Shown here: positions 172-52,857 of the stretch, one piece after another
Layout of the letters: each line of letters starts with the position of its first letter
Position numbering within the stretch: position 1 is the first letter of the stretch
Source: an uncultured bacterium
GTDB lineage: Bacteria > Omnitrophota > Omnitrophia > Omnitrophales > Abzuiibacteriaceae
Assembly (NCBI GenBank): GCA_964387845.1
Contig: CAYLXA010000011.1
Span: 1 to 64,000, forward strand
Length of the DNA stretch: 64,000 nucleotides
Direction of reading: 5' to 3'
Program-made: the position numbers and the translations under genes
The notes under the pieces: generated by a model
Databases searched by the model: none
Told to the model about the DNA's origin: nothing
What the model saw: only the letters and a program-made list of their open reading frames with translations

Positions 172-3100
172 TTGGAAGGAATGTCGAATTATCCTCCGGC
201 AAGAATAATGAGATCACAAATTATTTTCCTCAAAGTTGTCGCCATCACGCTTTGTTTTACATTTTCGGTTACCAGCACAATTGCCTATGGCGATTCGTCT
301 GTCATCATAGAATCTTTCAAGCATAATGCATGGCACGTCACGCCCGCATTTCCGGGGAATAAACCTGCCCAACTCCTTGATTTTGCCCGCAAAGCCGATC
401 TCGTTGTTGCCAGCGGACGTGCGGAGCTTCGTGCAAAAGAGCTGCAAGCTACAAGCCTCAAGCTGCAATCTGATCCGTCCGCGCTGAAAGTCTTGAAGCC
501 TGAAGCTGAAGAATCCCGATCTGAATTGAGGAACGAAGAAGGTGAACTTATGAAACGTCCTCGCGCGCGGCGTGACGCTCGGGAGGACGCCGCTGAGATT
601 GAGCCCGCAGTTGAAACTGAGGCGGTGGTCCAAGCCGAAGACGCTGAAATCAATTACAACCATTTTGCGCAAAGAATTATTAATGAACCGGTGGGGAAAT
701 TGCTGATCGATAAATCTATGGTTGAACAGATCGGCAAGTTAAACGTACCGCAATTCAAACAGATGTTTTATATGGATGTGGGGGCACTCAATGCGTATTT
801 CGTCTTGTATACAATGATCAAGGAAAATCGGGAATTAAATCCGGCTATTCATGACCATATTTTGACGGAAGAAGCAAAGGAAAGGGAAAAAACGGCCGCA
901 GCGGACAAGGCTGTTCAAGCCAAAGCCCAGGAACAAGAAGTTACTGCCCGAGATACAGCTTCAAAAGTGAAGTTGGTTGAGAAAAAGCGGGCAAAGTCTC
1001 AGAAGAAAGAAGCCGGTATAGATACGATTGAACGTGTACAGCTGGCGCCGGTTGAAGCCACAAAATTGACGCAGGGACTTTTTAGGCGGACGTTATCAAA
1101 ATATAAACAGCTCTGGAAACAGATCAGACAAAATAATCTGGATAAGAAGGACCGTGCGTTGGTCATGGCGACAAACATTATGTTGCTGGGCGGCGCTGCT
1201 TTCAGCACGATGCTTTGGGTATCGACTGATTTCGGCAAATATGCCGCGTGGTTTGGATATTTATCAACCGTTTTTTTGAGTGAAGCCGGCCTGCCGCTGT
1301 TTGTTAATTTTGTGGGAACGATCGATGAAATGGTTTTGGATGTGAAGGCAGTCAACGCGACCGAACGATTTATCGAATCACTTGATCGCTTTGAAGAATT
1401 TTTCCGCCGAATGCCGTTAAATCCGATCACGGAAAAAGGTTTGATCAAAGGAATCCGGAGTTTGCCGGCTGAGATTCAGCTTGAGTTGAAGAAAATCTCG
1501 GAAGGCAAAGATTGGGATTACCGGAATCTTGAGAAGTGGTACGAAATCCGAAGAAATCAGGTTATCCGGATTTTGAGAAAAGCGGATCTTGTTATTCCTG
1601 GCGAATTGGAAAATGCGCCGGCTTGGCAGGAGGAGGAAAATGGTGGCAACCCAAGGGTTCATCGCGGCAAACTTCTAAAATTGGTTTCAGAAGCGGTTAA
1701 TGATTCACGCAACGCGAATCGGGTCGAGGAATATCGGAAATGGGCGGAAAAATACAAGAAGGCGCGGACATTATTGCGTAAGATCAAGGGCTTGAATGAA
1801 GAAGAGATGCACTTGCTCGCTGTTCAACTCACCACAACATCGTTTTACGGGCATCCGGAACTTGAAAAACGTCTGGTACGCGCATTCTCGCGTATCGAGA
1901 AACGCCAAAAAAACGCGGATCAGGCGGTCTTTCTTGACCGGGAAGAAGGAAGCAGTTATACATTCAGTGCGCAGGGCCTTGTTGATTACGTGGCCGCGCG
2001 CTTCAGATTATCGGAATCAGACTATGATCTGGAAATTGATCCGGTGCCGCCTGATTTTGTTAATCAGGTCCGCATCCGTTCCGAATTGCGCATCTCATTT
2101 CTTCAAAAACTAGCAATTATCACAACGTTACTGACCGCATTCTTTATCCCGAACACATCAAAAGCTTCGACCATTCCTGTCGGATTTATGCCGCCCATTG
2201 ACAGCGCTTACCTTCATTCAGAAGGCGTCAGAGAAATCCGAGACGATGAAAAAAATGTTTGGCAATATCAAAAATATTCCAACCTCGATATTTTAACCGC
2301 CGCCGCAGTTTTAAATGCGACGAGAGAAAGTCCAAACGCTTCAGTTGATGCTGGTGTGATTGGCGTTTTCAGAAATGAAAGGAAACCGCTTGAGGAGCGG
2401 ATCTTGGCAGCGACCGTTTTAATGCTTAAACAGAAGGATTTTAAGAAAGAAGCGGGTGACTTCCTGGTCAAAATTCTGCATGACGAAACCAAGCCCGGTC
2501 TTGACCGTACGATGGCCGCAGCGGCTTACGCGCGGCTCATTGACGAGTCCTCTCATAAAAAAACACATAAATTTGCTATGGATTATTTGGTACGGGTTCT
2601 TTATGACGCCGACAAGCCTTATGCAGAACGTTTATATGCCGCGTCAGCCTATGCGTTGTTCAAAGCAGGAAGAGATTACATTGACGGGCCTAATTATAAA
2701 ACAACCATTGAATATGCCATGAGCATTCTGGTCAGCGCATTGCATGATGAGGAAGCGCCGGTTTCTCATCGGCTGATTGCCGCTGCTGCTTACGCCGGGC
2801 TTGATGATATGAATTTCGGCGATACGCATGAATATGCTATTCGGTATCTCAAGCAGGTTTATCAAAATCCGAAATCTCAATTTTCAAACCGTGTTACAGC
2901 TGCAGCGGCGCTGCTTGCGGCGGATGAATATGATTCAGAAGACAAATTTCTGGCTCTTATGCTTCGTTTGCCGTCGTTTGATAAAAAAGGAAATGTTGTT
3001 AATGAAAGGACGCCTGTTGATTTGCTTGATGCGATTCAGAACGGTGCGTTAACAGATGCCGGTGCGCATGCGGTAAAAGAGAAATTAAAAACCATACTTG

Positions 3101-6100
3101 ATGAAGGCCGTTTGAACCATGACGTGGGTCTTTTAGTGCGTTACGCGGAGGTATTGGAAAATCCGACCGCCGTTGATTTTGCGGAAATTGTGAAACTGGT
3201 TAGTGCTGTGCTGCCTGATGAAGAAAATCGACTTGAGTTTTGGTTTGATATCGCCAAGAAAGTTCAAGATCCGGAAAAGTTTAATTTTAATTCTTACGTC
3301 TTAAAAAATCTTCTGACCGATCCCGTTCTAGATCCCGCTCAGGTCCCCGATCAGGAAATCATGGAATTCCTGATTAAGAATCATCCCGACCAAGAACTGC
3401 GCAAGCAGTTGAAAGTTCGCATGAAAGAGTCGCAGTGGCAAATGGTTAAGGGGACGCAGGTGGTATACCTTGCGCTGGTTTTTATGGTGGGTGTCGGAAT
3501 CAGCATCCAGCAAATGAAAGCCCGCCGCCGTTCCGAACTCAGAAGTATTTTGATTGAATTGTGGAATTCAGTCCAAACTATTGCACGTGATCCTATTTAT
3601 GGCCCGTCGTATGCGATTTGTTTCGGTTTGATGGCTTATATGGTAATTAAGTTTGGGCCGAGACGCGGCAGTTTCTTCCCGGGAAGTTCGCGGAATATAG
3701 AAAGAATGATCCGCGCAAAATTCAAGAATGCATCTCCATCAGATTTAGATCAAGCCCGGACGATTGTCAAAGAACTTCGGGATAAAATCGAAAAAAACCT
3801 GGAACGGCCGCATTTCGAAATACGCTATGTGCTTCCTGCGATTATTCAAAGTGCAAACAGCGTTGAGCAATTGAGAAAGTTTGTGGAATCCTTGGGCGTC
3901 TGGAAGGATGCCGGATGGTTTGATCGATTAATTGGCGGAGTTCTGCCTTTATCTTTGGTTGGACGCCTTGGTGAAGCACCTCTTTTAGTCGGAAATCCTT
4001 ATGAAAAGCCGGCAATTGAAAAGGCGATGAAAGGGATTGCCCGGGCTATTCAGAGCTCCGATGAATTCCGAGAAGGGTTTGAAACCGTTGTCATTTTCTT
4101 TGAAAAATTGAAGCAGGCAACTGCAAGAAAAAAATATTTTCGAAACGAAAGTATTATTTCTCCTCAAGTTGCTTGGGAAGAACTGCTCCAGAAAGCGCAC
4201 CAAATTCGGATGCAGCACGGCGATTTTACCGTTTCTTTTCAGCCGGAAGAGCGGGAGATCATTAACAATCGCTACACTGACAAAGTTCTGCAACACCAAG
4301 TAATTTCTGTCAATGAACCGAGCGTGGCTTCTGCGCGTTCCGTCCCAACTCACAATAAAATGCCGGGAACGTCTATTGATGGGAAAGTTGGGACGGCTCA
4401 GACTTCCGATGAAAATTCGTCAGGTTCTTCAATGAAAGTCAGGGCCGAATTGCGGCAGGCGAGCAGCCGCATGCGCGCCAAGCAGGAACGTTTATTTACC
4501 GAGCGCGCGGCGAGCCGGCGTATTGCAAGAATTGACCGATGGTTTCAGCATTATCATGATGATTATGACATGAACTGGAACCCCGAATTTTTTGCGAGTA
4601 AGCACGAAACATTCCTGGACCGTATCAAAACACAATTGCGGGATTTTGAAATCGAGAACGAAGCTATTGATATCGCGATAGAACAATCCATGTCAATTTT
4701 AATAGCGGGCGTTCCCGGCGGCATCATCCGCGCTTTCCTCAAGCGTTTTACGAACATGGTGCATCGCCATATTTACGGCCCCGTGGCGGTAGAAGAAATC
4801 AATGACCGCATGCGGCATTTTAAAGAAAGAATTGATAGAAGTCTTGAATCCGCCGCCAGCCTCGATGAAAGGCGCCGCTTGATGAAAGGTTACCGCTTAA
4901 AGCACGGCTATCTTTGGATAGACAATGTGAGGACAAGTTTTGAGGAACTTCCGGTTGATCATTCTACCGCATCTACCGTGAAAGTGATCGGCCCGCGTGA
5001 AATGAAAATCCATCAAATTGCCGGCTACTTCGAAAATATTTTGCACCGCAAGAGAGGATTGCTGACGGATCAAAAAGACCATGAAATTCTCAAGTTTCTT
5101 GTCGGCCGTTTAACGGATTCTGACCCTTGGGTGGTAAAGGCGGCAGTGTGGGGGATTAACCGTATTGCGGACCGGATGGATCCCGTGCTCAAACAATTTA
5201 TTTTGGAGCGTTACTATGAAATTCTGAGCGGCAATCACAGTGAAGTTGCCCGGGGCTCTATTGCACGGTCCATCCGTGAAGTTTTTAACCCGCAAAGTTT
5301 GGATGTCGCACTTGAGATGTTGAAAACGGAGCAAACCGAATGGGTGCAGACTTACCTCGTTGAGGTCATTCAAACCATTGTGAGCCAATCCGATAAAAAA
5401 TCACTCCGCTACAAACATTCCCGCGACATTATCGAGCAGCTGCTTGAGAAGGCGGTCGGTGATCCTGACGCAAAAAGATCGCACATCATGCTGCGCGTCG
5501 GAAGCATTAAAGCATTGGCCGAGCTTTTATGGTATGACCCTGAAGTTTTGGACCGCTTGAAAGAAATGGTTTTAACCGAGCCGGATTCTACCATTCAAGA
5601 AGCTGCAATGTGGGCACTTGCAAGATTGCATGTGGCAACGCCGGAAGGGATGGCTCAGATCGATTCGTTGCTAGAAACTTTGACGGCATATCTGGAAAGC
5701 AGTCATGCAGGCCGAAAAAACGTTTTCTTAGAACAATATGCCAGACAGCTTCTTTTTTGGCTGCAGCGGCTTTCGTCCAATCGAGATCTGAAAGCAAAAA
5801 TTTTATCGATGAAGCGTACGAATCCTGATTTTTCTTTGACCGAGAAAATTATTTTAGGCGCACTGAACCAGATTGAAAAATATACAAAGAGATTGAAACT
5901 GCTGGAACATGCAAATTGGATTTTTGAGTTGTTCCAGAGTGCGATTTTTAGGCGCGCCCGCTCAGGCTCAGCCCGTACATTAACAGCGTATCATGACCGA
6001 TTGAAAGCACAGGCCAAACGTGACGCGGTTTATTTCAGCGGTCGCGCGATGAATCCGGTTATTTTACTCGACATCGATGCGATTCTTCCGAAAGAGGGCG

Positions 6101-9100
6101 ATGAAGCCGCAAAAGCATCTGAATCCGACCACGTTTTCGATATTTTAAAATCGTTTATGGATAGAGGCTGGAGCGTGGTCGCGACAGACCGGTATCGCGA
6201 AGAGCGTGATGCAGCTCACTTCAACGTTGCCCAGGGCGCCGAAATGAAATTAAAAAGCAAGGTGCTCAGGCAAGCCATCAAATTTTTGGCGTCAAACCGC
6301 CCGATCCGTATTCCTTCAAAAGACTGGTCGCGGGGCAAGCGGCATCAGCGCATGTCCGGCCTCTTGGTTCCTGTTCCGGACGAACCGATTGTCGTGCTTG
6401 TACACGGGCCGGAACTTTGGATGGTGAAAGACATCATGCCCGGCACTTTTTCGGGAATCGTATCGGTTGGTGATTATAAAGATGCTTCTAACGGTGTCTA
6501 TTTAGACAAACTCATTGACGCCATCGAAAAGAAAGCCAACGGCCGGATTGTTCAGCGTGAACCGTCACGTTCTGAGCTGCGGCATGGGCCTGAAGATTTT
6601 GTCAGAGACGAAACCGCGCGAATGGTTCGTGAGCTGGTCGGCACTTTCTACAAAAAATCTGTTTATCCTTTCGCGCACGAAATCGACAAAGGCAATATAC
6701 GCATTGAAGATCAAATTTTAGAGGAAGCGGCCCAGGCGGGGCTTTTCGGCCTCGCGATTCCGGAAGAGTTTGGCGGCTCGGGCCTCAGCCCTATTTTAAA
6801 AATCATTGCCGACATCATCGGCTGGTATATCAATCCTTCCGTTGCGCTTTCGATCGGTGTTCACAATAGCGTTGTCAAAGGGCCGATTCAAGATTACGGA
6901 ACGGAGGAGCAAAAAAAGAAATATCTCACGAAACTCGCGAGCGGTGAATTGATCGGCGGCTATGCGCTCACAGAATTGGAAGCCGGGTCCCAGGCATTGA
7001 GCAAGCGGTTTCCACTCCAGACGACCGCTGTCCCCGTGGAAGTCGACGGAAAACAATACTACAAACTAAACGGAACCAAACGGTTTATCACGAACGCCCG
7101 TTTTGCCGGTGTTTTTGTGGGTTTTGCGATGCTGGGTGACGAGCGAAGAGTATTTATCATTGATCGTGACTTGGAAGGTGTTTCGGTCGGAGAGGACGAG
7201 CAGAAAAGCGGTTTAAAAGGTTCTTCGACCGCGGATTTAATTTTGCAAGACGTTTTGGTTCCGGCTGAAAATCTGATCCCGGGAGACGGGATCAAAATCG
7301 GCATGTCTACCATGAGCCAGGGGCGCCTCAGCATCGCCGCAAGCGCTTTGGGCGGAAGCATGCGGATTTTTGATGATACGCTGGAATATTCGAAATTGCG
7401 CAAACAATTCGGCGGGCCAATTTGGCAATTCGGCGGCGTTAAGCAAACTCTGGCGGAAATGGCCGCGGATCTTTACGCGCAGGAGTCCGTTGTTTATGCG
7501 GTCGCATCTCTGCTGACCGAAGGCAAAGTGAATGCGGCATTTGAATCGGCGGTTGCCAAAGTTTTCGTGACGGAGAAATTTAACCACATTGCCCAGAAGG
7601 GCGTCAAAACACACGGCGGCGCCGGTTACATTTCGGATACGCCCACGGCGCGCATCGGCCAGGATGCGATTGTTACTGAAATTTTTGAAGGCATGAATGA
7701 TGTGCTTTATTCGAACGTGATTGCAGCCCTCTATCTTAAGAAATTGATGACGGAAGGCAATCAGGTGCTGAACATCTCGGATTACGGCCAGTTTTATCCG
7801 GAAATCCAAAAACTTTCGAGTTTAATCGGGCAAACCGGTAAAGTCATTCTCGGAAAATTCGGAACGCTCACGCCGGAGAATCAAGATGAGTACATGGCAT
7901 TCGGGAAAATGGCCTCCGAATTTTACGCAATTGTGTCCGCAGTGCGCAGGACCCGGAAAATAACATCAGAAATTAATCCGGATGACCCCAAACTGAAGCA
8001 TTTTTTGGATGTCACACGGCTGGTTGTAGCGAGAGGCACTAAACGGATCCGCGATGAGGCGTCTCATTTTGTAGATCCGGATGTGTTCGGCGTTTCTTCC
8101 GACCAGCGTAAGTATTTTGAATTAACCCGCGGCATTGCGGAACATCTCGTTGTCAATCCGCCGAAACGCATTGTTGAATTCAACGCCTCAAACGAAAGTC
8201 AGTCAAGCCGCGCCGAGCTTCGTCTCGATCCCGTTTATCTTGTCGATTTGACAGTGTTTGGCTTGCTTGCCATTTTACCGTCTTGGTTTGCGCTTAAACT
8301 GACAACCGAGCGCTATGCTAAGCGAACGATCGATCAGCTATATTCGCCGGCGGTTCAAGAAGAGATGGATGCGAATCGTTCTTTCAATGTCAATTTTTTA
8401 ACATTTTTTTATGACCGGGCAGTTCATTGGGTCCGGTTTCTTGTAATATCATTTTTGCACGGTTTTAGTGCATGGGTAGCCAGCTATTACGCTTTCGCCA
8501 TGTATTATCCGGCGGCTTCAATTTTTTGGCCTCTTGTTGCGGCTGCGGCTGCATTTGGCGCTTCCGGTGTTTCTTTATGGATTCGCGACAAAAAGCAGGT
8601 GCGGCAAAAAATAACTGTGGCTGCACAAATTCCGGCCAAGCAAATTCACGGAAAGTTTGAGCTGAATTTTGATTTGGTTTTTGGCTTTGATTTACGCGAA
8701 CTTTTAGACGGTAAAACAGGGGAAGAGCAAGCGCTTCAAAATTTACGGGCAAAAGTAGAAGAGCAGGTGGAGAGGATCGCCGCAAACAAGGGCGCCGTTC
8801 CCGCCGAGGTGGGAAAAGTTTTGGTTCCGGTGACGCCTGAAAGCTTTGCGAGCACAGGACCCAATTTCAAAGTGGAGGGCCTTCGCGGCCAGTTTACAGT
8901 TCGCATCCCTCGAAGCAATATCAATACTATGCACTCTTTTCCGCTCAATGTTACGTCCGTCTATTTGGGCGGCCAAAAAATCGCGGTCGGCACCGTGTTT
9001 TTCGAGAAAAATAAAGATGCGCGCTCAGAGTTGAGGTCCGAGGGTGCAGCAAAAAGTGCTTTTTCGAATTTCTTAGCGAGTGTGCCGGAAGATTCTGAAA

Positions 9101-12100
9101 AATGGAAGAGTTTTTTGCGCGAGCAGCTAGCGCTTTTTGCAGCCGAATGGGTTAAGCTGCCAGGGGAATTGCAAAATTTTTTCCCGGAAGAAACGCATTT
9201 ATTTCAGGAATTTACGGCTGATAATATTCCGGCGGTCAATTTAGACAATTTCTTTAAATTAGCTGCCGTGCGCGATGCCGTGGTTGATTTTATGCCGAAG
9301 CTTAACCAAAGCAGCTCTCTTCCGCAAAATGCCGAAGCCGTTCAGATCCCGGGTTTTAACGGTGCGCTTCTGGATGGCTGGGTGATTCGCGCGGCTGACA
9401 GCAAGCAAGAAAATCATCCGGCGTTTCTGATTTTGCCGCCATGGGGCGATGATATCTCAAAATACGGAAAGCTCGCCGAACTTCTTCATCAAGAGTTTCC
9501 ATCTTTTCATGTGATTGGTTTGGATTACACCAAAGATCCAAATCTCGAAACCATTTTGAATACCGGCGGAATCGCAGAAAGTTTTGATATTGAAGCGGTG
9601 ATTCGCGCGCTTTCCAGATTTTCCGATTTGAAGATTGATCCGTCCAAAATCACGGGCATCGGTTATTCGATGGGCGCTAATACTTTGGCGATCCTGCAAA
9701 AGCGCACCGGGCTTTTGTCTCATTTTGTGCCAATCGGGCTGCACGACAGTTACGCCTCCGTGCTTGCCGGCTATTATGAGAATGTCCATATTCCGCGCAT
9801 TGCAAGAATCGTTACACGCCGGGGCTATTCATTCATTGATTGGACTGACCCAATGATACGAGAGCATGCCAAGCGATTATTGATTGAAGCCAGGCTTCGA
9901 ATGAACCAATTTACTATCGCAAGAAGGGAAATTCCTGTTAAGCCGGAGGATGATCCGTTTTTAGATTTGGCAGAAACCGCATCATCGCTCCAAATTCCGG
10001 TTCATTTTGTATTTGAAGAGGAGTCTGATCTGTTACAGGAAAGCGTTCGTGATTTTTACCGCGCTCTGGCAGGGCAAATGAATGAATCAGGCCGAACGGC
10101 GCAATACAACACCTATCCCGGAAAGCACAACAAGATTGATCCGGCATCTTTGGTCAGCGATCTCAAAACTTTTCTGACCTCTCGTTCCGAATTGACTTCG
10201 GCTCGAGCGGAGCCGAAGACTATTTCGGCATCATCGCAGAGCGCGATGATGTCCGAATTGCGGAAGCAAAATCATTTTATTTTGTTTGTGGCTGGGAGCA
10301 TTTTGTTTTGGGCGGGCTGCTTAATGACGGAGCAAAAACCTGTCAGCGAAATGCCCGCGGAAACGCCAATTGAACAAATCGCCGAAACTTCCGAACCGGT
10401 TACAAACGCACCGGCCGATGATATAAGTGAGCCTGCCGAGATTCAGAAGCAGCCGCGCGCACCGCCCAAAAGTGAATTTGAGACTTTGCTTGAAGCTTTA
10501 GAAACAGGAAATGACGACGAGCGCTGGGATGCCGCCAAGACGCTCAGCCGTTCCGCCAACTCTGCCGCAAGCGGCACATTTTTAAAAGCGCTTCAGGATT
10601 CCAATAGTTTGGTCCGCCGCGAAGCCATTATTTTCTTCCGCTATCACCATGATCCGCGAGCACCGAAAGTTTTGATCGAGCTTTATCGCAAAGAACTCGA
10701 TTTGGGCATTCGATCCGACATTGTCGAAACATTGGGAATTTTGCAGAGCGCCGAAGCCGTTTCGTTTCTAATCCAACGGATCAAACGGGAAGACGGCGCC
10801 GCTTTCTATGTTTTAAAACGCGCGTTGGTCCGTATCGGCGTTCAAGCGATTGAGCCGCTTATCGATGCGATTCGCTTTGAATACAACAAAGAATTGGCCG
10901 CTAAATATGAAGAAACCCTTCGGGAAATCTTCAGAAATCCGGACGCTGCCGAACAGCGCAAAAAAGCGGAGAAACACTGGTACGAAGCCGTCCGCCGCGC
11001 CGCGCTCGGAATTACCAGCCGTTCAGAGCTTCGTAAATTTCACGAACCAAAACCGCAAGCAAGCGGCGTGGACGCGGGCATTTATATTGAAGGGTTAGAG
11101 AAAGTAATTCGGGCGAATCGGTTCAGCGCGCTTCGCTATGACCGAACGAAAAAGCGCTGGGTCATGACTTCCATTTTGATAGATGGAAAGAAGCGCAAGG
11201 GCCTTCTGCTGTCTAGGAAGCAACTCGATGGAGTTAATCTTGCTTTTAGTACGCTTCATCAAAAACTACAAAAGGAAATGACGGAAAAGTCGAATGCACG
11301 CATCATTTTTGTTAAAGGTTTGATGCCTATATTGGGAAACCACATGCCTTGGGTTCAGCGCCCGGCCGGCCTGAGCGGTTTTTCGAAGCCGGATTTTATT
11401 CTTGACCGCAATGCTGCTTACAATCCTCTGGCTTTGTTGGATCAATTTGAATATGAAATCCGGCGTAAGCGCTTGATGGCCGGTCAATTTTCTCCTGCGG
11501 AGAAAAGAGAATTAATCAGAAACCCAAACACTTTTGATTTGCGCGTTAAATTCAAGCAGGTTTATCTGGAAGCTCATGCTCAGTTGATTCAGGATAATGT
11601 TATAAATTCCAGAGATGAGCTTTCGTTCTACGATTCAACCCAGAGAACGCGCCTGCTTGAGCTTGTGATTTTGCAAGCTGCGCAGGAAGCGACCCAAGTT
11701 CGTTACCGGTCTGTCGAAAACGCTTTAAAAGCACTTGATGAGGCAGCCAAGGATGGAAATCATTCAGGACATCAAGTCGCAATTGGTATCTTGGCCTTGC
11801 ATGCATCTGACATTGCAGCCCGATTAATTAAAAAATCCGATAATGAGTCAATCAAGATCGCCGCACTGGACTATATTGCATCGGCGCTTATTGATCAAGA
11901 TACAGCTTCCCCAGCAATAGAGATTACTGGTGGCCTTCATCATGAAATCCGAAATATTCTAACCAATTCTAAAAACCCCCGGCTTAAAGCTGCCGCACTT
12001 CAACTTTTCACAGTCTTGATTTATGTTCAGCTAGTAGATTCGAACGAGAAGCTTAATGCGCTTGAATATCATTATGCCAATCTCGAACTGGTGATCAGAA

Positions 12101-15100
12101 GCCTGATTCCAACTATCCGTCAAATGGCGCTGACGGAGAAGAACGCGCTCTTAAGATCTCATGCCATTATTTTCTTTCTCGCTCTGTCTTTGCGGTATCC
12201 TCAGTTCAGAGGAAGCCGAAGGACGTTAAAACGCTTAGCGCCCGAATTGGAGCGGTATGTGCTCGAAGGGAAGGATTCCAACATGACTCAAACGGGTATT
12301 TTAGTTCTTGAGCATCTTTGGCGTCAGTTAGACAAAAATCCGGAGCGCTTCGAAACATTTATCAGCCGGTATATTTTCGGAGAAAACCATGCGCCGACCG
12401 GAATTCGGCGTACTGAAACTTATTGGGCGGGCAAATTAGCGCACTCCGAAATCTCGGAAAAGATGCCGACTCTGGACCGGATTCTGGCTAACAATGATCA
12501 GTTATCTCGTTTTCTCACTTTTCTTTCCGTTATGCGGCTTGCTTATCCTTATAGCATGATTAATGGTAGTTATGAGCGCCCGATTGCTTGGGCTAAGAAG
12601 AACCAAAAGATTTTTAAGCTCGACGAGCTCCGCATTGCGTTTGTCAGTGAATCATACCGCCGCCATATTATTTTTACGGAAGACCAAAGTCTTGCACTCG
12701 AAATAAAATTCCCAGGCGAACGCGCTTCAAGCGGCGATGTTTCGAAAATTCACGTGACATTGGCCGAAAAGTTGCGGCAGCAGCCTAAGGGTGAAACGGT
12801 GGTCAGCGAACCACTCTTTTTTATAGGTTTGAAAGGGTTATTCAATCTTTATGGCCCCCGGGAAACCTCGATTGAATATAAAGAATTTCCTTTGGGAATT
12901 GTGGGGTTCCGGTATCAAGACTCGAAACGTTTGCGTAATGTGCTTGAAGATAAAGAATTGTGGCAAGCATTTGTTGAGGAAGCTTATGGGCCATCGGACA
13001 AGTATCAACAAAAGGCCTATGTGCGGATTGCTGCGGATTTAATTATTTTTGCACTCAAGATTCATGAATTGGGTTATCAGGCCAGCACGCGCCGCCTAAC
13101 GGATCTTCACCTTGAAAATTTTGCGCTGTTGCCCGACGGCCACGTTTTTTCCGTGGCTGATTTCGGAATTTATTCCCGTAGCGGCAGCCGTTTAACCAAA
13201 TTCCGTAAAAGAAAAGAAACAAGCGGCCTGCTTGCTGCATTAACGGCTTACAAAAGCAGTCTCATTAGCGCTTGGGACAATCCGACATTTGTCATGGAGG
13301 TCGTTGACGCTGTTTTGGTTAAACTTTTAACAGGCGTTACCGATCCGGCAGAAAGAACAGAAATCATTCTGCGTGTCTTTGGGGAAGTGCGGGATATTTT
13401 TGAAAAAGTCGGCATTTCACCGCTATTCGAGGATGCGCTTGTGCGGGCTTGGGATGTTAATCAAGAGCCGGATGGATATGAAGTCCGTCAAAAAATTGCA
13501 AAATCCATCATTTCCAGATCGGTTATCGCTATTGGAATCGCATCCGATGCGTGGTCTGCGCTTCGATACGACAAAGATCAAGAAAGATTGATTACATCAC
13601 CGCTTCCGGACGATCTTGTGCATCGATTCTGGGATCATCCGGAATTGTTGCAACCGCTAGAACCGGTATTGCTAAGTGATAAAGAAGTTAATCTTCTCGA
13701 TAAAGCTTTCAAGCTTCTGCCTGAAGTGGATCGAAACCAGTTTACGTCGGATCCTAATTCTATGATCGTGTTAATGAAAGGAATGGATGCGCACATTGCA
13801 GAATCAACGATTGATTTCAAAAGATTGACGAACCCGCACGCCTATCACGACTTGGTGTCACCGCGTTTCTTTTTTGACCAGCGGCTGATCAAAGACCCGT
13901 TTGAATTCATGAAAATACTTCACAACGAGATCAAACTGCGGAATGCGATTCTTCAGAGTTTAACCGAAGATGAAATCGCGATGCTAAAAAACCGTCATTT
14001 GCCGGCTGAGCTTCAATCGAAAATCATGAAAAAAACACAGGAAACCAGAGATTTGCAGTGGGACACTTACTTTCGATCAGCCGGAAAGCAAGAACCCAAT
14101 CAAGAACAATTAAGTCTTTTGGAGGACCTTATTGTCTATGGTGCGCAGGATCATTTGCATAAAACATTCGAGTCTCCCGCAGAAGCTTTGTTGGCATTAG
14201 CAAAATCATTAGGAGAATTGAAAGGCGCTCAAAAGAAACGAACTCAAGATTTTCTATTTTACATTCACAACGAAATTTTATCTTTGATTCTGCTCAATCC
14301 AGATGCGGACTTAGATTTAAGAATATCGGCGGTTGTCTATGAGATAGAAAAGGCCAAGTTAGAATCGTTTGCGCTTTTGACTGCCGAGCCATTGGCACGG
14401 CATTTGGAGCGTATCTACGACCGGCATAAAAACGTCCGGCTGCGTGTTGTAATTCTTCGCTTCCTAGCAATTGTTCATGAGCAAGTTGAGCGGGAGATGA
14501 GAGATAATTTAAAGTCAGGGGACAATTTAGTTAAAACTCGTTACGTCGTCGAATCGATTGCCTGGAGGATGGCAGTCGGCGTTTTGAAAAACAATAAAAG
14601 CAAACGTGTCGAAAAGGAGATCGTTAAACTTTTGCTGCAGCTTTTACGGCCTTATGCCGCGGTCTCTCAAAAACCGAATCATGGGCAGTTACGTCTGCTT
14701 CTTGAGGAGGCTGTGATTTACATAAACCAGAATATCGAAAAAGATCCTTCAAAGGAAAAAAACAAGCTGCTTGCCCTGGCAATTTTAAGCAGGCAGATTC
14801 CGATTGCAAGCGACTATTTGGAAGCTGCGCTATTGCGGTATATTTTCGATTCAGATGACATTAAAGGAATACGGATGCGAAAGTCTGGCTATCCGGCGAG
14901 CGATGCTATTCAGCCTTTTGAACAAAGCATGCCCACGCTTATTCAAATATTGAAAAACAAGCAGTATTTAGCGCGTTTCATGGTTGCGCTCAGTATTTTG
15001 CGTGAAGCTTTTCCGTACCACGTCCCCAATTCGCATGATTTTAATGAAGACCTGCTTGAAACCGTAGAAACCAGTGGCGCCGTGCGGCTGAAAGAGCTCT

Positions 15101-18100
15101 TAATCGCGCCGCTTATGCATGAATATTCAAGCCACTTGGTTTCCACAGAGGACGGCCGCAATGTTTTGCGGCTGGTGATTCCGGGCGATTCTGTGCGGCA
15201 TTTTAGTAACCATCTTCGGAAAAATCATGTAGGCAAAAGAAATTTATTATTTTTTATTCCCATCCTCGGCGTCCCATTTTTGTATGGAGCTCTGGATTCC
15301 CATCGACTTTCGGGGTTTGCGGGTTACCGGGAACGCGCCAGTGAAGGTTTGACCATGAAAGAAATCAGAAGGCGTGAAATGATGAATGATCGGATTCCAT
15401 CGTTGGTCAGGACGATCTTGACGCACTTTGGCCAGAAGTATGATGCATCGGCGCTTCATGAAGCATTGGTTCGTCAGGATGTCAATCAGATCACAAAACT
15501 CATCTTCAGCGATGAATATTATCAAGATTTCAAGCAATGGCTGCTCAATTATATGCGGAACGTTTTTCATATGGAAGAAAGCGAAGTTCCGGATGCCTTC
15601 CGGCGTGCTTTAAAACAATACTTTGAGAAGAAAGAATCGCTAGGCCGCACAGAAGCAGCCGTAAAAAAATCAGCAGAAGGAAGCGACGCTCAATCAAAAT
15701 CCCGTTCAGAGCTCAGGGCAGGTGAGTTGTCCGCGGAAGTCCAATTGGCCAATGAGATCACCAAAGCCGTCACAAATTTTGCATTGTGGAAATCATCGGA
15801 ACACAAAATGTCGGTCTCTCGTCAGCAAATGCAAGGCTATAGAGATGCGCATCGGGAAGCGGATGCTTTGGTTAAGGCCGGAATCAAAACTTTGTTACTT
15901 TCCAGGGAAAGGGCAAAGCTCATTCAAGCTCGAACTGCAGTTCAACAGGCTATGAACCAGAGCGGCGTGACGGCAAAGGCAAAGAAAAGATACGAGTTTT
16001 ATATTGGGTTGCTCAATCAAGCCACCGAAAATCGTTCCGTCCCGACTCACAATAAAACGCCGGATCAGACTTCCGTTGAATATCCTCGCAATTCTTCAAT
16101 GAAAGCCAGAGCCGAGTTGCGTTCGAATCAAGCGTATCTTTGGAAATCGAAAATTACATTGGAATTGGCAAGCCCGGCCGGGAAGCCGGACGCTCCTAAA
16201 CGGTATATATTTGAAATAGAAGGCCGCAAATTCATGACGTTCGATGATCCTGATTCGGCCATTGAAATTGTGGGCGAAAGAGCGACCGATCTTGGTGTGC
16301 ACGATCCTTTTCTCAGTATTATGATCACCGAATTGCTGCCGTGGATTTTTGTTGAAAGCTTCAAAAATAGGAGGGTACGCCAACCAGACGGAAATTTTGC
16401 GCTTCAATTTCCGGAACTTGATTCCGGAGAAAAAGATATATTGGAAAGCGAAGTGCAGGTTGCTTTTGGTATTGGGAGTCAGCCGAGTTATGTTGCGTTT
16501 GGCCCCCGATGGTATCGCTTACCCGAGCGCGAATCGATTAATCAGATTGTCAATCAGGCCACCGATAGTTTTGCAGGTGATGATTCAATCGAAAAGCGTG
16601 CAGTGCCGGCTTTGGTGACTTTGGTCAAAGTTTTGAATGACGAAAGCCGAAGCGATGTTGAAACTTACATCGAACAGAAATTTGGTCCGCATGAATTCTT
16701 AAAACGTATGCTGACTTCCGAGAGAGTTACAAAAAACACTTTTTTTGATTTTGTCCGCCGTAATTTATTTTTGGAGCGGATCGGTGAAAAGTGGTTTCCC
16801 TACGGCCTATATACAGATACTAGGCGGTCTGAGCTAAGGCATGATTTTCGCTTTCTCCTAGGAATAGAGCGCGAAGAAGAAATGCAGAAAATCTTCGACA
16901 AGATTAAGCGGGGAGATTCCAACGACATCGAGCAAGCCTTAGGTTCCTTGATTGATTTTATCGGTACGATTCCCAATTTTTTAGATGACCGAAAGTGGGC
17001 GGAATTAAGGAAGTGGATTGCCCGGAATGTGGTTGGCAGCATCAATGTTTCATCTTTTAATACAGCCGGTATTCAAGATTTACTTATCCGTTTTTACAAT
17101 ATCCTGCCGGGCCCTACGACATTGGCTCTGTCTGCTTCGCTGGATGATGAAACCGAATTTGGTGAGCGCATATTTATATTAACTTTCTTATTAGCGGGTA
17201 TTCAAGAATCCGAAAACATAGCAAAGGTTGTATTGCGCAATCGTGTTTTTCAACGAGAAGCAAGCCGGCCAAAAACCGATAATGAAGCCCAGCTTTTTAA
17301 TCAAATTCACCAAGCAATCGATAGAAAAATTAAAGATCAGGCTTCGCCTAGCCCGGCTGCCGGGGAATTATCCGACCCACGATCTGAGCTTCGGATTGCG
17401 TTTACGGATGAGCTTCATCCGGAATTGTTAAGCAGGGAATTTGCAGACGAAAATTCGATCCGAAACAATTTAATAGAGGTTATGAGCGAGCCCAAGACTC
17501 GTGTGGAACTGTTGGGAATTAAAACAGGCGAGTTCATTCAGCGCACGATGGGCAAGATGCAGGTTGTTTTCGAGAAAACCGGCGAACGGGTCGATTCCCT
17601 GACGGGTGAACATGTTATAGAAATCGAATTTAATGTGATTGCGACAAAAGTTCATACCGAGTCCGGAACTATCGAAGCGCGAACGAAACCAAACAGCCGG
17701 TTGTTTGAAGGGCTAAATGCCGGTATCGTGCCGGAAATTAAAATTCGTTTTAACACGGCAATGACGAACGGGATTCGTGCGGTCAATGCGCGCCACGGGG
17801 AAATGGACGAAATTTTCGCTTCTCAAGTTCCGGATTTGGCGAGCGGTTTGGAACGTGTCGGACCCATTGCGGGCCATGATCTTATTTTCGGTGAGGATGG
17901 ATCGCCGCTTTTTGCGGAATATTTTCTTAAAAGATTCGGCGTTCTGGCCGTCGTTACGAGTTCACAAGCTGAAGAAGACTTTTTAGATCCGATCCGGGAT
18001 GACTTACAAAACGGGGAAGTGTTGATTGTCGCTCAAAGTTTTGAAGAAGCGCGCTTGGAACTTAGGAAAAGGGGATTTACGAATCAATTATTGCTTGTTT

Positions 18101-20849: not shown

Positions 20850-20931
20850 TGAAGCGCCCCGTTGCGGCCCTGATTTTCATTGAAGCATCCAAGCGGTTAT
20901 TAATTGGAAATCAGGACCGTCGTGACTACCA

Positions 20932-52594: not shown

Positions 52595-52680
52595 GCCGAA
52601 GTGGCGGAACTGGCAGACGCGCTGGACTCAAAATCCAGTGGTGCTCAAACACCGTGTGGGTTCGATTCCCTCCTTCGGCA
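52595..52680 (+). tRNA. tRNA-Leu (anticodon CAA), long variable arm
   Basis: GCCGAAGTGGCGGAACTGGCAGACGC…CTCAAAA anticodon loop…GGTTCGATTCCC…CTTCGGCA; 86 nt. Confidence 0.8.
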
Positions 52681-52719
52681 CTGATTTTCATTAAAAATTA
52701 AATAACACTATTTGGGAAT

Positions 52720-52857
52720 CAGCGCTGCCCCTGAATCTCGATAAAACACGTTTTTTCGTTTCTTGATATTCAGGGGCGGCACTGACTTTCATTAAAGTGT
52801 TCCATTCGATTATTAATCAAAGTCAGCGCCTGCACTTGAGTGGCAAAACTCAAGTGC
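52720..52857 (+). promoter_or_regulatory. structured leuS leader: inverted repeat cagcgctgcccctgaat/attcaggggcggcactg (52720-52784) and hairpin gcacttgagt-ggcaaa-actcaagtgc (52832-52857)
   Basis: Two strong stem-loops between tRNA-Leu and the leuS start. No T-box consensus seen. Confidence 0.45.

Follow-up and report, generated by a model that had tools for sequence, protein, structure and literature searches.

Two in-frame cassettes in a giant modular gene of an Omnitrophota bacterium and their relation to an intergenic palindromic repeat

A gene that strings unrelated protein modules together raises the question of what lies at the joints, and of how much the same short stretch of coding sequence comes to stand at two of them. 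The question is posed by a 64,000-nucleotide stretch of DNA from an uncultured Omnitrophota bacterium (GenBank assembly GCA_964387845.1, contig CAYLXA010000011.1, positions 1 to 64,000; hereafter the window), in which one giant open reading frame (ORF) is punctuated by the pentapeptide R[SA]ELR and, 11.7 kb apart, carries a pair of related cassettes that each end on this motif. The initial annotation took the pair for a recent intragenic duplication or gene conversion of a boundary cassette. The explanation favoured here, which we regard as probable rather than certain, is that these are sister cassettes at module boundaries, built on an in-frame antisense copy of an intergenic hairpin repeat, bracketed by RS ... 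(RA)ELR and tolerated as a linker.

The cassette pair and the repeat within it

Both segments exist as first described, in the same frame of a single ORF, with no stop codon and with lengths that are multiples of three; copy B begins at 16033, one base earlier than originally given. The features needed for what follows are listed below.

172..18249, plus strand: giant multi-module ORF, 6,025 aa from TTG 172 and 6,013 aa from ATG 208
4336..4455, plus strand: cassette copy A, 120 nt, 40 codons, peptide RSVPTHNKMPGTSIDGKVGTAQTSDENSSGSSMKVRAELR
16033..16122, plus strand: cassette copy B, 90 nt, 30 codons, peptide RSVPTHNKTPDQTSVEYPRNSSMKARAELR
4336-4366 and 16033-16063, plus strand: block 1, 31 nt, 29/31 identical (94%), private to the two cassettes
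4366-4395, plus strand: ten codons specific to copy A, a 30-nt indel relative to copy B
4389..4453, minus strand: element copy in cassette A, antisense to the ORF, arms GGCCCTGACTT / AAGTCTGAGCC, minus-strand hairpin z -2.6
16057..16115, minus strand: element copy in cassette B, antisense to the ORF, more degraded, hairpin z -1.5
4441..4455, plus strand: RAELR closing cassette A, AGG GCC GAA TTG CGG, with AGG GCC inside the outer arm of the element
16108..16122, plus strand: RAELR closing cassette B, AGA GCC GAG TTG CGT

Aligned by codon, the two copies agree at 74 of 90 nucleotides (82%) and differ at the other 16 besides the in-frame indel of 30 nt, so that the near-identity of about 90% reported at the outset was too generous; only block 1 lies at 94%, while block 2 (4394-4454 / 16061-16121, 61 nt) aligns without gaps at 79%. 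The pairing itself is well founded. A blastn search of copy A against the whole window returns the two blocks at E 2.2e-10 and 3.3e-8, and in a tiled blastp comparison of the giant protein with itself no other short pair reaches a high identity (55% over 40 aa for the cassettes, E 1e-5), the one further internal similarity being the old duplication in the largest module. The homology has exact edges, CGTTCC (Arg-Ser) on the left and the final Arg codon of RAELR on the right; beyond them the sequences do not align, in keeping with the earlier observation that the surrounding sequence is unrelated.

Between these edges the ends are conserved at the protein level (proportion of nonsynonymous differences, pN, about 0.04), block 1 having a single synonymous difference in 10 codons, and the middle drifts freely (pN 0.35; the synonymous counterpart, pS, 0.29). 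Since the overall synonymous p-distance is about 0.28 and the middle has drifted in this way, the cassettes are related but not very recent: the word 'recent' is a relative one, given this distance, the nonsynonymous value of about 0.35 in the middle and the indel. That the pair is an artefact of assembly, through the collapse or expansion of a repeat or through a chimeric contig, is very unlikely, close to negligible. Nothing positive points to it; the sequence itself probably stems from a metagenome assembly. The copies have diverged, each has its own unique flanks, and both keep the frame of the 18-kb ORF, while diverged in-frame repeats are not something that assemblers produce; moreover, the same gene architecture is found in two independent assemblies.

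Copy A can be drawn as a double hairpin, in which a perfect 11-nt inverted repeat (CCGTCCCAACT, 4340-4350; AGTTGGGACGG, 4386-4396) is followed by the hairpin of the element. Hairpin 1 consists of block 1 and the 30 nt specific to copy A, and copy B, which is without its right arm, most simply lost that arm through a 30-nt deletion. Hairpin 1 was also considered as a second copy of the same element, and the element profile does not detect it as such. The trinucleotide CCG stands on either side of both cassettes (CGTT[CCG]...GGG[CCG]AATTG); it is just 3 nt long and overlaps the hairpin arms, the comparison covering the two cassettes.

The nature of block 2 emerges from the rest of the window. 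The blastn search with copy A also matched three intergenic sites, in reverse complement, and a 19-nt core (GGCNCTGAYTTTCATTRAA) occurs six times in the window where 0.04 occurrences would be expected: in the two cassettes (minus strand), at 20866, 52677 and 52778 (plus strand) and at 52812 (minus strand). The match at 52812-52830 is the right arm of the copy at 52778, and the window therefore holds three intergenic elements.

20856..20924, plus strand: intergenic element copy with an ABC permease gene on one side and a GlmU-like gene on the other, ending 8-11 nt before ATG 20932; dG -21.7, z -3.9
52669..52731, plus strand: intergenic element copy adjoining the tRNA of 52595-52680 at its 3' end; z -3.6
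52770..52833, plus strand: intergenic element copy stopping about 8 nt short of the leuS start (52840); z -3.9

In the alignment of the window copies, inverted arms GGCnCTGAyTT ... AArTCAGnGCC enclose a loop of about 28-35 nt. The element overall is about 58-60 nt long, with arms of 12-15 nt (GCAGyRCTGAyTT / AArTCAGyRCwGy), each of which holds a small CAGnnCTG palindrome, and a loop of about 28 nt with conserved TCATTrAA and TATTwAT. Folding gives strong hairpins for the intergenic copies (z -3.6 to -3.9); the genic hairpins are degraded (z -1.1 to -2.6), and copy B does not form the hairpin of the plus strand. Between the two neighbouring element copies comes one more palindrome (GCCCCTGAAT...ATTCAGGGGC, 31-nt loop), at 52715-52775, so that three hairpins stand in tandem between the tRNA and leuS.

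Two profiles free of cassette sequence carry the identification. One built from the three intergenic copies only, and run with nhmmer over about 1.3 Mb (the window and the fetched loci), recovers both cassettes in antisense, A at E 1.7e-6 and B at E 5.9e-4, and nothing else. The other, of 17 sequences, matches both cassettes on the minus strand along the whole element, A at E 9.8e-12 (40 bits) and B at E 2.7e-7, and scores the window's intergenic copies at 42 bits (two) and 60 bits (the third). On this sequence evidence, block 2, the 3' part of about 60 nt, is in each cassette a somewhat degraded, in-frame antisense copy of the element.

This bears directly on the origin first proposed, in which a coding boundary cassette was simply duplicated, or copied by gene conversion, within the gene and its likeness to intergenic palindromes would be secondary or coincidental. 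We consider it unlikely as a full account, although several observations speak for it. A and B are the closest pair over the element region (77% identity, against 67% between B and the 20866 copy and 56-64% for the remaining pairs), the intergenic copies lack block 1, and the CGTTCC flank is identical; the 10-mer AATGAAAGYC stands in frame before two further motifs, as if an older cassette had spread; and Met is enriched directly before motifs across the gene family (8/29 sites against a background of 11%, p 0.012). However, the cassette-free profiles match both cassettes over the full length of the element (E 1e-11 and 3e-7, rounded), copy A is 70% identical to the intergenic 20866 copy, which is to be set against its 77% to copy B, and the giant genes of relatives carry no cassettes. 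Part of the original claim nevertheless stands: being the closest pair, with a private block 1 and an identical left edge CGTTCC, A and B are sister copies of one longer ancestral cassette located at R[SA]ELR boundaries. What does not stand is its purely coding nature, the 3' two-thirds being the intergenic element.

The repeat as a family of palindromes

A scan of metagenomes with a gapped pattern yielded 45 loci and among them about 14 further distinct, well-scoring copies, at 2-4 per contig. These keep positions that the pattern had left free, namely the outer arms and the TATTwAT box, and 15 of 18 good copies are intergenic. One of the contigs (L092) is syntenic with the window at 65-68% protein identity, and another (L110) has a tandem pair of elements 106 nt apart. 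In an alignment of 16 copies the arms covary, one pair being U-A in 10 copies, C-G in 6 and unpaired in none; 83% of arm cells are paired against 26-43% in slid controls, and the covariation score was reached by 2 of 500 shuffles. [quoted passage not shown] Because it is widespread and intergenic in related contigs, a passage from intergenic to genic positions is far more likely than the reverse.

Comparison with known repeats helps to place it. Like REP/REPIN elements, it is a short, dispersed, mostly extragenic imperfect palindrome that folds into a stable hairpin with arms that selection preserves, and it is often clustered or paired, here in tandem copies. In contrast to them, the 16-copy alignment has no conserved 5' GT[AG]G tetranucleotide, the outer arm reading GCAGyRCTGA instead, and two copies are coding, whereas REPs are extragenic by definition. 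REP/REPIN elements are mobilised by RAYT (IS200/IS605-like) transposases, and no RAYT gene is among the annotated genes of the 64 kb. The density of the element is 3-4 intergenic copies in the window and 2-4 per related contig. With bacterial MITEs (ERIC, Correia, BOX, Chunjie) it shares terminal inverted repeats of about 12-15 nt, a non-coding and multi-copy character and occasional in-frame intragenic fusions; it differs in a size at the very bottom of the MITE range, in having no known parent insertion sequence and in being flanked, at the cassettes, by just the 3-nt CCG.

The closest known phenomenon is that of the Rickettsia palindromic elements (RPEs), by likeness of behaviour and with no sequence relationship expected. 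Rickettsia ORFs carry such palindromic elements in frame, translated as a tolerated extra peptide, and the elements are also found between genes (PMC10969869). Here too the same small palindromic repeat is both intergenic and within an ORF, and the genic copies keep the reading frame and are translated as added peptide. However, RPEs measure about 100-150 bp against about 60 nt for the element (90-120 nt with block 1), and the present case belongs to another lineage, with only two genic copies in one gene that split and regenerate a specific boundary pentapeptide. While the phenomenon is thus already known from Rickettsia, the element family itself is previously undescribed: Rfam holds no family that matches it, and its matches in the window are tRNAs only, which also sets aside a known RNA family. 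The cassettes would be a clear case from outside Rickettsia in which a protein has taken up, in frame, a small palindromic repeat of intergenic origin.

Could the cassettes instead be kept for a function of the nucleic acid, as an antisense promoter or operator, a hairpin that pauses ribosomes or a mark for RNA processing ahead of the motif? Such a role is rather unlikely, marginally more so than a purely coding duplication. It would fit the near absence of synonymous change in block 1, the two adjacent hairpins that copy A can form, and the two intergenic copies of the window that end 8-11 nt before start codons, which hint at a regulatory role. Set against this, the cassette hairpins are degraded relative to the intergenic ones and copy B is without hairpin 1; consensus scans give no promoter or terminator; only 2 of 14-16 boundaries carry a cassette, and the metagenome copies show no fixed spacing to genes or start codons. 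Specific candidates fared no better. A promoter reading of the element as TTTCAT-17 nt-TATTAAT is supported neither by the consensus scans nor by any fixed distance of metagenome copies to starts, a terminator is likewise unsupported by the scans, and for a sigma-54 promoter the -12 GC is absent. Most likely, the cassette has no function of its own beyond that of a tolerated linker that preserves the boundary motif.

The boundary motif and a proposed route for the cassettes

R[SA]ELR occurs 14 times in the frame of the giant ORF against 0.04 expected from composition, and not once in the other frames of the 64 kb; set against 709,000 aa of other ORFs, it is about 230-fold more frequent. It is a strict pentapeptide with no flanking preference, and since its codons vary the constraint acts on the peptide.

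418, 517, 2077, 3529, 4441, 6568, 8209, 9022, 11020, 15703, 16108, 16825, 17380 and 18217, plus strand: starts of the first Arg codon of R[SA]ELR
10249, plus strand: variant MSELR in the giant ORF
3513..3543, plus strand: AATGAAAGCC (M K A) and then RR-RSELR, a possible remnant of older date; undetected by the element profile
18147..18179, plus strand: AATGAAAGTC (M K V) and then FS-RSEMRR, in which the motif is degenerate, a possible remnant of older date; undetected by the element profile

The first Arg codon is AGG or AGA in the two cassette motifs alone, the 12 other copies using varied codons, so that the divergence of codons remarked on in the initial annotation is borne out. The junctions offer a reason to read the cassettes as insertions at a motif. 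Each spans from the 'RS' to the 'ELR' of a motif, that is, from CGTTCC through to GAATTGCGG, where the uninterrupted motif at 2077 has CGTTCCGAATTGCGC. With 4343-4447 (105 nt) or 16040-16114 (75 nt) taken out in silico, what is left is CGT TCC GAA/G TTG CGN, a plain RSELR, and the 'RA' of RAELR (AGG GCC) is encoded by the outer arm of the element (..TCAGGGCC).

From these features a route may be proposed. The element, probably in the form of a composite with two hairpins, as in copy A, would have entered one RSELR-coding boundary tolerant of extra linker, a cassette-free site reading CGTTCCGAATTGCG. The insertion would have gone into the RSELR site or right against it, with the arm of the element regenerating a valid R[SA]ELR. 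The whole RS-element-RAELR unit may then have been copied to the second boundary 11.7 kb away, either by composite transposition or by microhomology or gene conversion between motif-coding sequences, after which copy B would have lost 30 nt. The remainder of the cassette is translated as a polar linker of 25-35 residues. If so, the cassette landed where a giant modular protein best tolerates extra sequence, with the boundary motif kept intact.

Several points weigh against this explanation. No intergenic counterpart of block 1 or of the 30 nt specific to copy A was detected, block 1 being absent from the intergenic element copies and from the rest of the window, and a third of the cassette is thus unexplained by the element. 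The left arm of hairpin 1 (4340-4350) overlaps the Ser codon TCC, so that 'RS' may itself belong to the inserted DNA, which weakens the reading of a split motif. The identical CGTTCC in both copies fits the copying of a whole unit and does not separate transposition from conversion. The occurrence of AATGAAAGYC before two more motifs could reflect an older coding 'MK[AV]-R[SA]ELR' cassette instead of repeated insertion. The gapped pattern used for the metagenomes was partly shaped by the cassettes, yet the three intergenic copies of the window alone give E 1.7e-6. Finally, the annotated genes of the window include no transposase or RAYT gene, our view of the genome is the 64-kb window, and any mobility of the element is putative.

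AATGAAAGYC, the core of the cassettes, deserves a closer look, with 5 copies in the window against 0.78 expected. Four of the five belong to the giant ORF, share one frame (M-K-A/V) and precede RSELR, RAELR or RSEMR by 0-2 residues (3513, 4431, 16098 and 18147), and the fifth is the intergenic copy at 52784. The two sites outside the cassettes may be old decayed insertions, start-codon relics of once-separate genes or an older coding boundary cassette. The other boundaries in general were considered as decayed copies of the element; the profile detects nothing at the other 12, and only the 10-mer recurs.

The cassettes are absent from the giant genes of both distant relatives (L001 and L002), and boundary cassettes are accordingly not a trait of the whole family. 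The earlier suggestion that such a cassette is a way for a modular gene to grow or shuffle is not upheld either, since no module has moved with the cassette and neither of these relatives has one; the repeat informs on mobile or repetitive DNA and not on the shuffling of modules.

Motifs also occur in short-spaced pairs. In the window these are RAELR-28 aa-RSELR near the N-terminus (418-531) and RSELT-17 aa-MSELR (10180-10263); the relative P0003 has RADLR-19 aa-RAELR, its double-motif regions covering residues 54-82 and 2592-2654 (L001). The cassette, as RS...35 aa...RAELR, is shaped like these double motifs. If the motif were a cleavage site, double motifs would release small peptides.

The giant gene and its rare family

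The setting of the cassettes outweighs the cassettes themselves, in that very rare giant ORFs of unrelated proteins are split by a strict pentapeptide. The only close database protein (P0001) is identical to the giant ORF from residue 13. An exhaustive HMMER search with the C-terminal 842 aa against 1.84 billion representatives returned three proteins only, all singletons, and scans of genomes and metagenomes with central modules brought up no relative. A word-index search (with the C-terminal 842 aa and with a three-sequence profile) missed even P0001, and its negatives for this protein are uninformative. The family occupies the following loci.

172-18249 of the window: giant ORF, 14 motifs against 0.04 expected
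L001, 10001-23167: giant gene of a relative, 10 motifs against 0.03 expected
L002, 10001-13753: giant gene of a relative, 3 motifs against 0.008 expected

The two relatives (1,250 aa with 3 motifs and 4,388 aa with 10) sit in ordinary chromosomal contexts and share with the window's protein the N-terminal leader (..A[ST]GN.SR[SA][ED]LR) and the last ~190 aa, while the cargo differs. All three C-termini place a motif or variant in a long terminal helix, and a small tail of nonpolar residues comes after it (RSELRTAVSA, QAELRIAYAA and QADLAVAYSA), tails that we take to resemble C-terminal degrons of the ssrA type.

The motifs separate unrelated and apparently complete modules, among them an acyl-CoA dehydrogenase (ACAD, 6583-8208) bounded by two motifs, and HEAT-repeat proteins. 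Residue 2 of free-standing ACAD enzymes aligns 4-5 residues past the motif. Signal-peptide-like or transmembrane stretches follow directly on the motif at 6 of 29 sites (background 9%, p 0.04); in the window, such internal targeting sequences right after motifs (2092-2170, 8224-8300 and 10249-10320) comprise a Sec-like signal peptide (ISFLQKLAIITTLLTAFFIPNTSKAS), a transmembrane segment and a lipoprotein-type leader. Leaders of the last type, ending in Cys, occur in non-homologous modules, as MSELRKQNHFILFVAGSILFWAGC here and as RAELRRPARDFLAAGILSIAASLTVSSC in P0003 (residues 1215-1242, L001). ACAD, a FAD enzyme of cytoplasmic type, shares its polypeptide with these internal targeting sequences.

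Such an arrangement invites the thought that the cassettes are relics of gene fusion, former intergenic spacers that contained a resident element and are now translated as linkers. Modules that resemble whole proteins, the start of ACAD 4-5 residues after its motif, the signal-peptide and lipoprotein-type leaders directly after motifs, and ATG AAA, the commonest gene start here, just before four motifs, would all agree with it. Yet two old spacers of separate origin would not have in common a 31-nt block of 94% identity and the same junctions; the element runs antisense to the ORF, unlike its orientation upstream of glmU and leuS, and the other 12 boundaries show no trace of it. This origin is improbable, more so than a function in the nucleic acid. 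A start of translation at every module was also rejected, half of the motif sites having no in-frame start codon within 12 codons; the scoring of internal starts is limited, as the genome hardly uses Shine-Dalgarno sequences.

It is attractive but unproven, on the sequence as it stands, that the giant ORF is a bacterial polyprotein cleaved at R[SA]ELR. As in viral polyproteins and MARTX toxins, one huge ORF holds unrelated modules with a short recurring peptide between them. In flavivirus polyproteins some modules start with internal signal sequences. The giant ORF differs from such systems in that no protease domain was detected in cis or nearby, cleavage at R[SA]ELR being a candidate activity; it has neither MARTX repeats nor the domains described for Omnitrophota giants. 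No peptidase domain was found in the ORF, in its neighbours or in the relatives' loci, and the conserved C-terminal module, for which a confident alpha/beta model was obtained, has no significant fold match and matches no protease, so that autoprocessing by this module was set aside. The cleavage of giant bacterial proteins has been described as an open question for which cleavage points are lacking (West-Roberts et al., bioRxiv 10.1101/2023.11.21.568195), and a defined candidate cleavage site makes it testable.

A bolder variant joins the two themes, in that the R[SA]ELR copies would be polyprotein processing sites and the hairpin element would prefer, or be tolerated at, these sites only, regenerating the site by its own arm. 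We hold it to be about as unlikely as the purely coding duplication. If it were true, mobile palindromes would create and move cassettes of linker plus cleavage site, and the four boundaries with AATGAAAGYC would represent successive generations.

Beyond the giant gene, the window (18965-63574) reads as an ordinary Gram-negative chromosome, with lpxA, lpxB, lpxI, an LpxC-FabZ fusion, bamA, dnaB, prs, rplY, pth, rpsB, tsf, pyrH, leuS, pyrG and four tRNAs. The best matches of Prs, at 61-65%, are to metagenome-assembled genomes of Planctomycetia, Omnitrophota and FCPU426, which points to a deep-branching, PVC/Omnitrophota-like lineage without a close species representative. Within the giant ORF, an ancient duplication at about 30% identity lies inside the largest module, which has 1,561 aa and no Pfam match; in it, 11107-12855 corresponds to 13537-15288 (aa 3646-4228 and 4456-5039; blastp E 3e-17 for the best segment).

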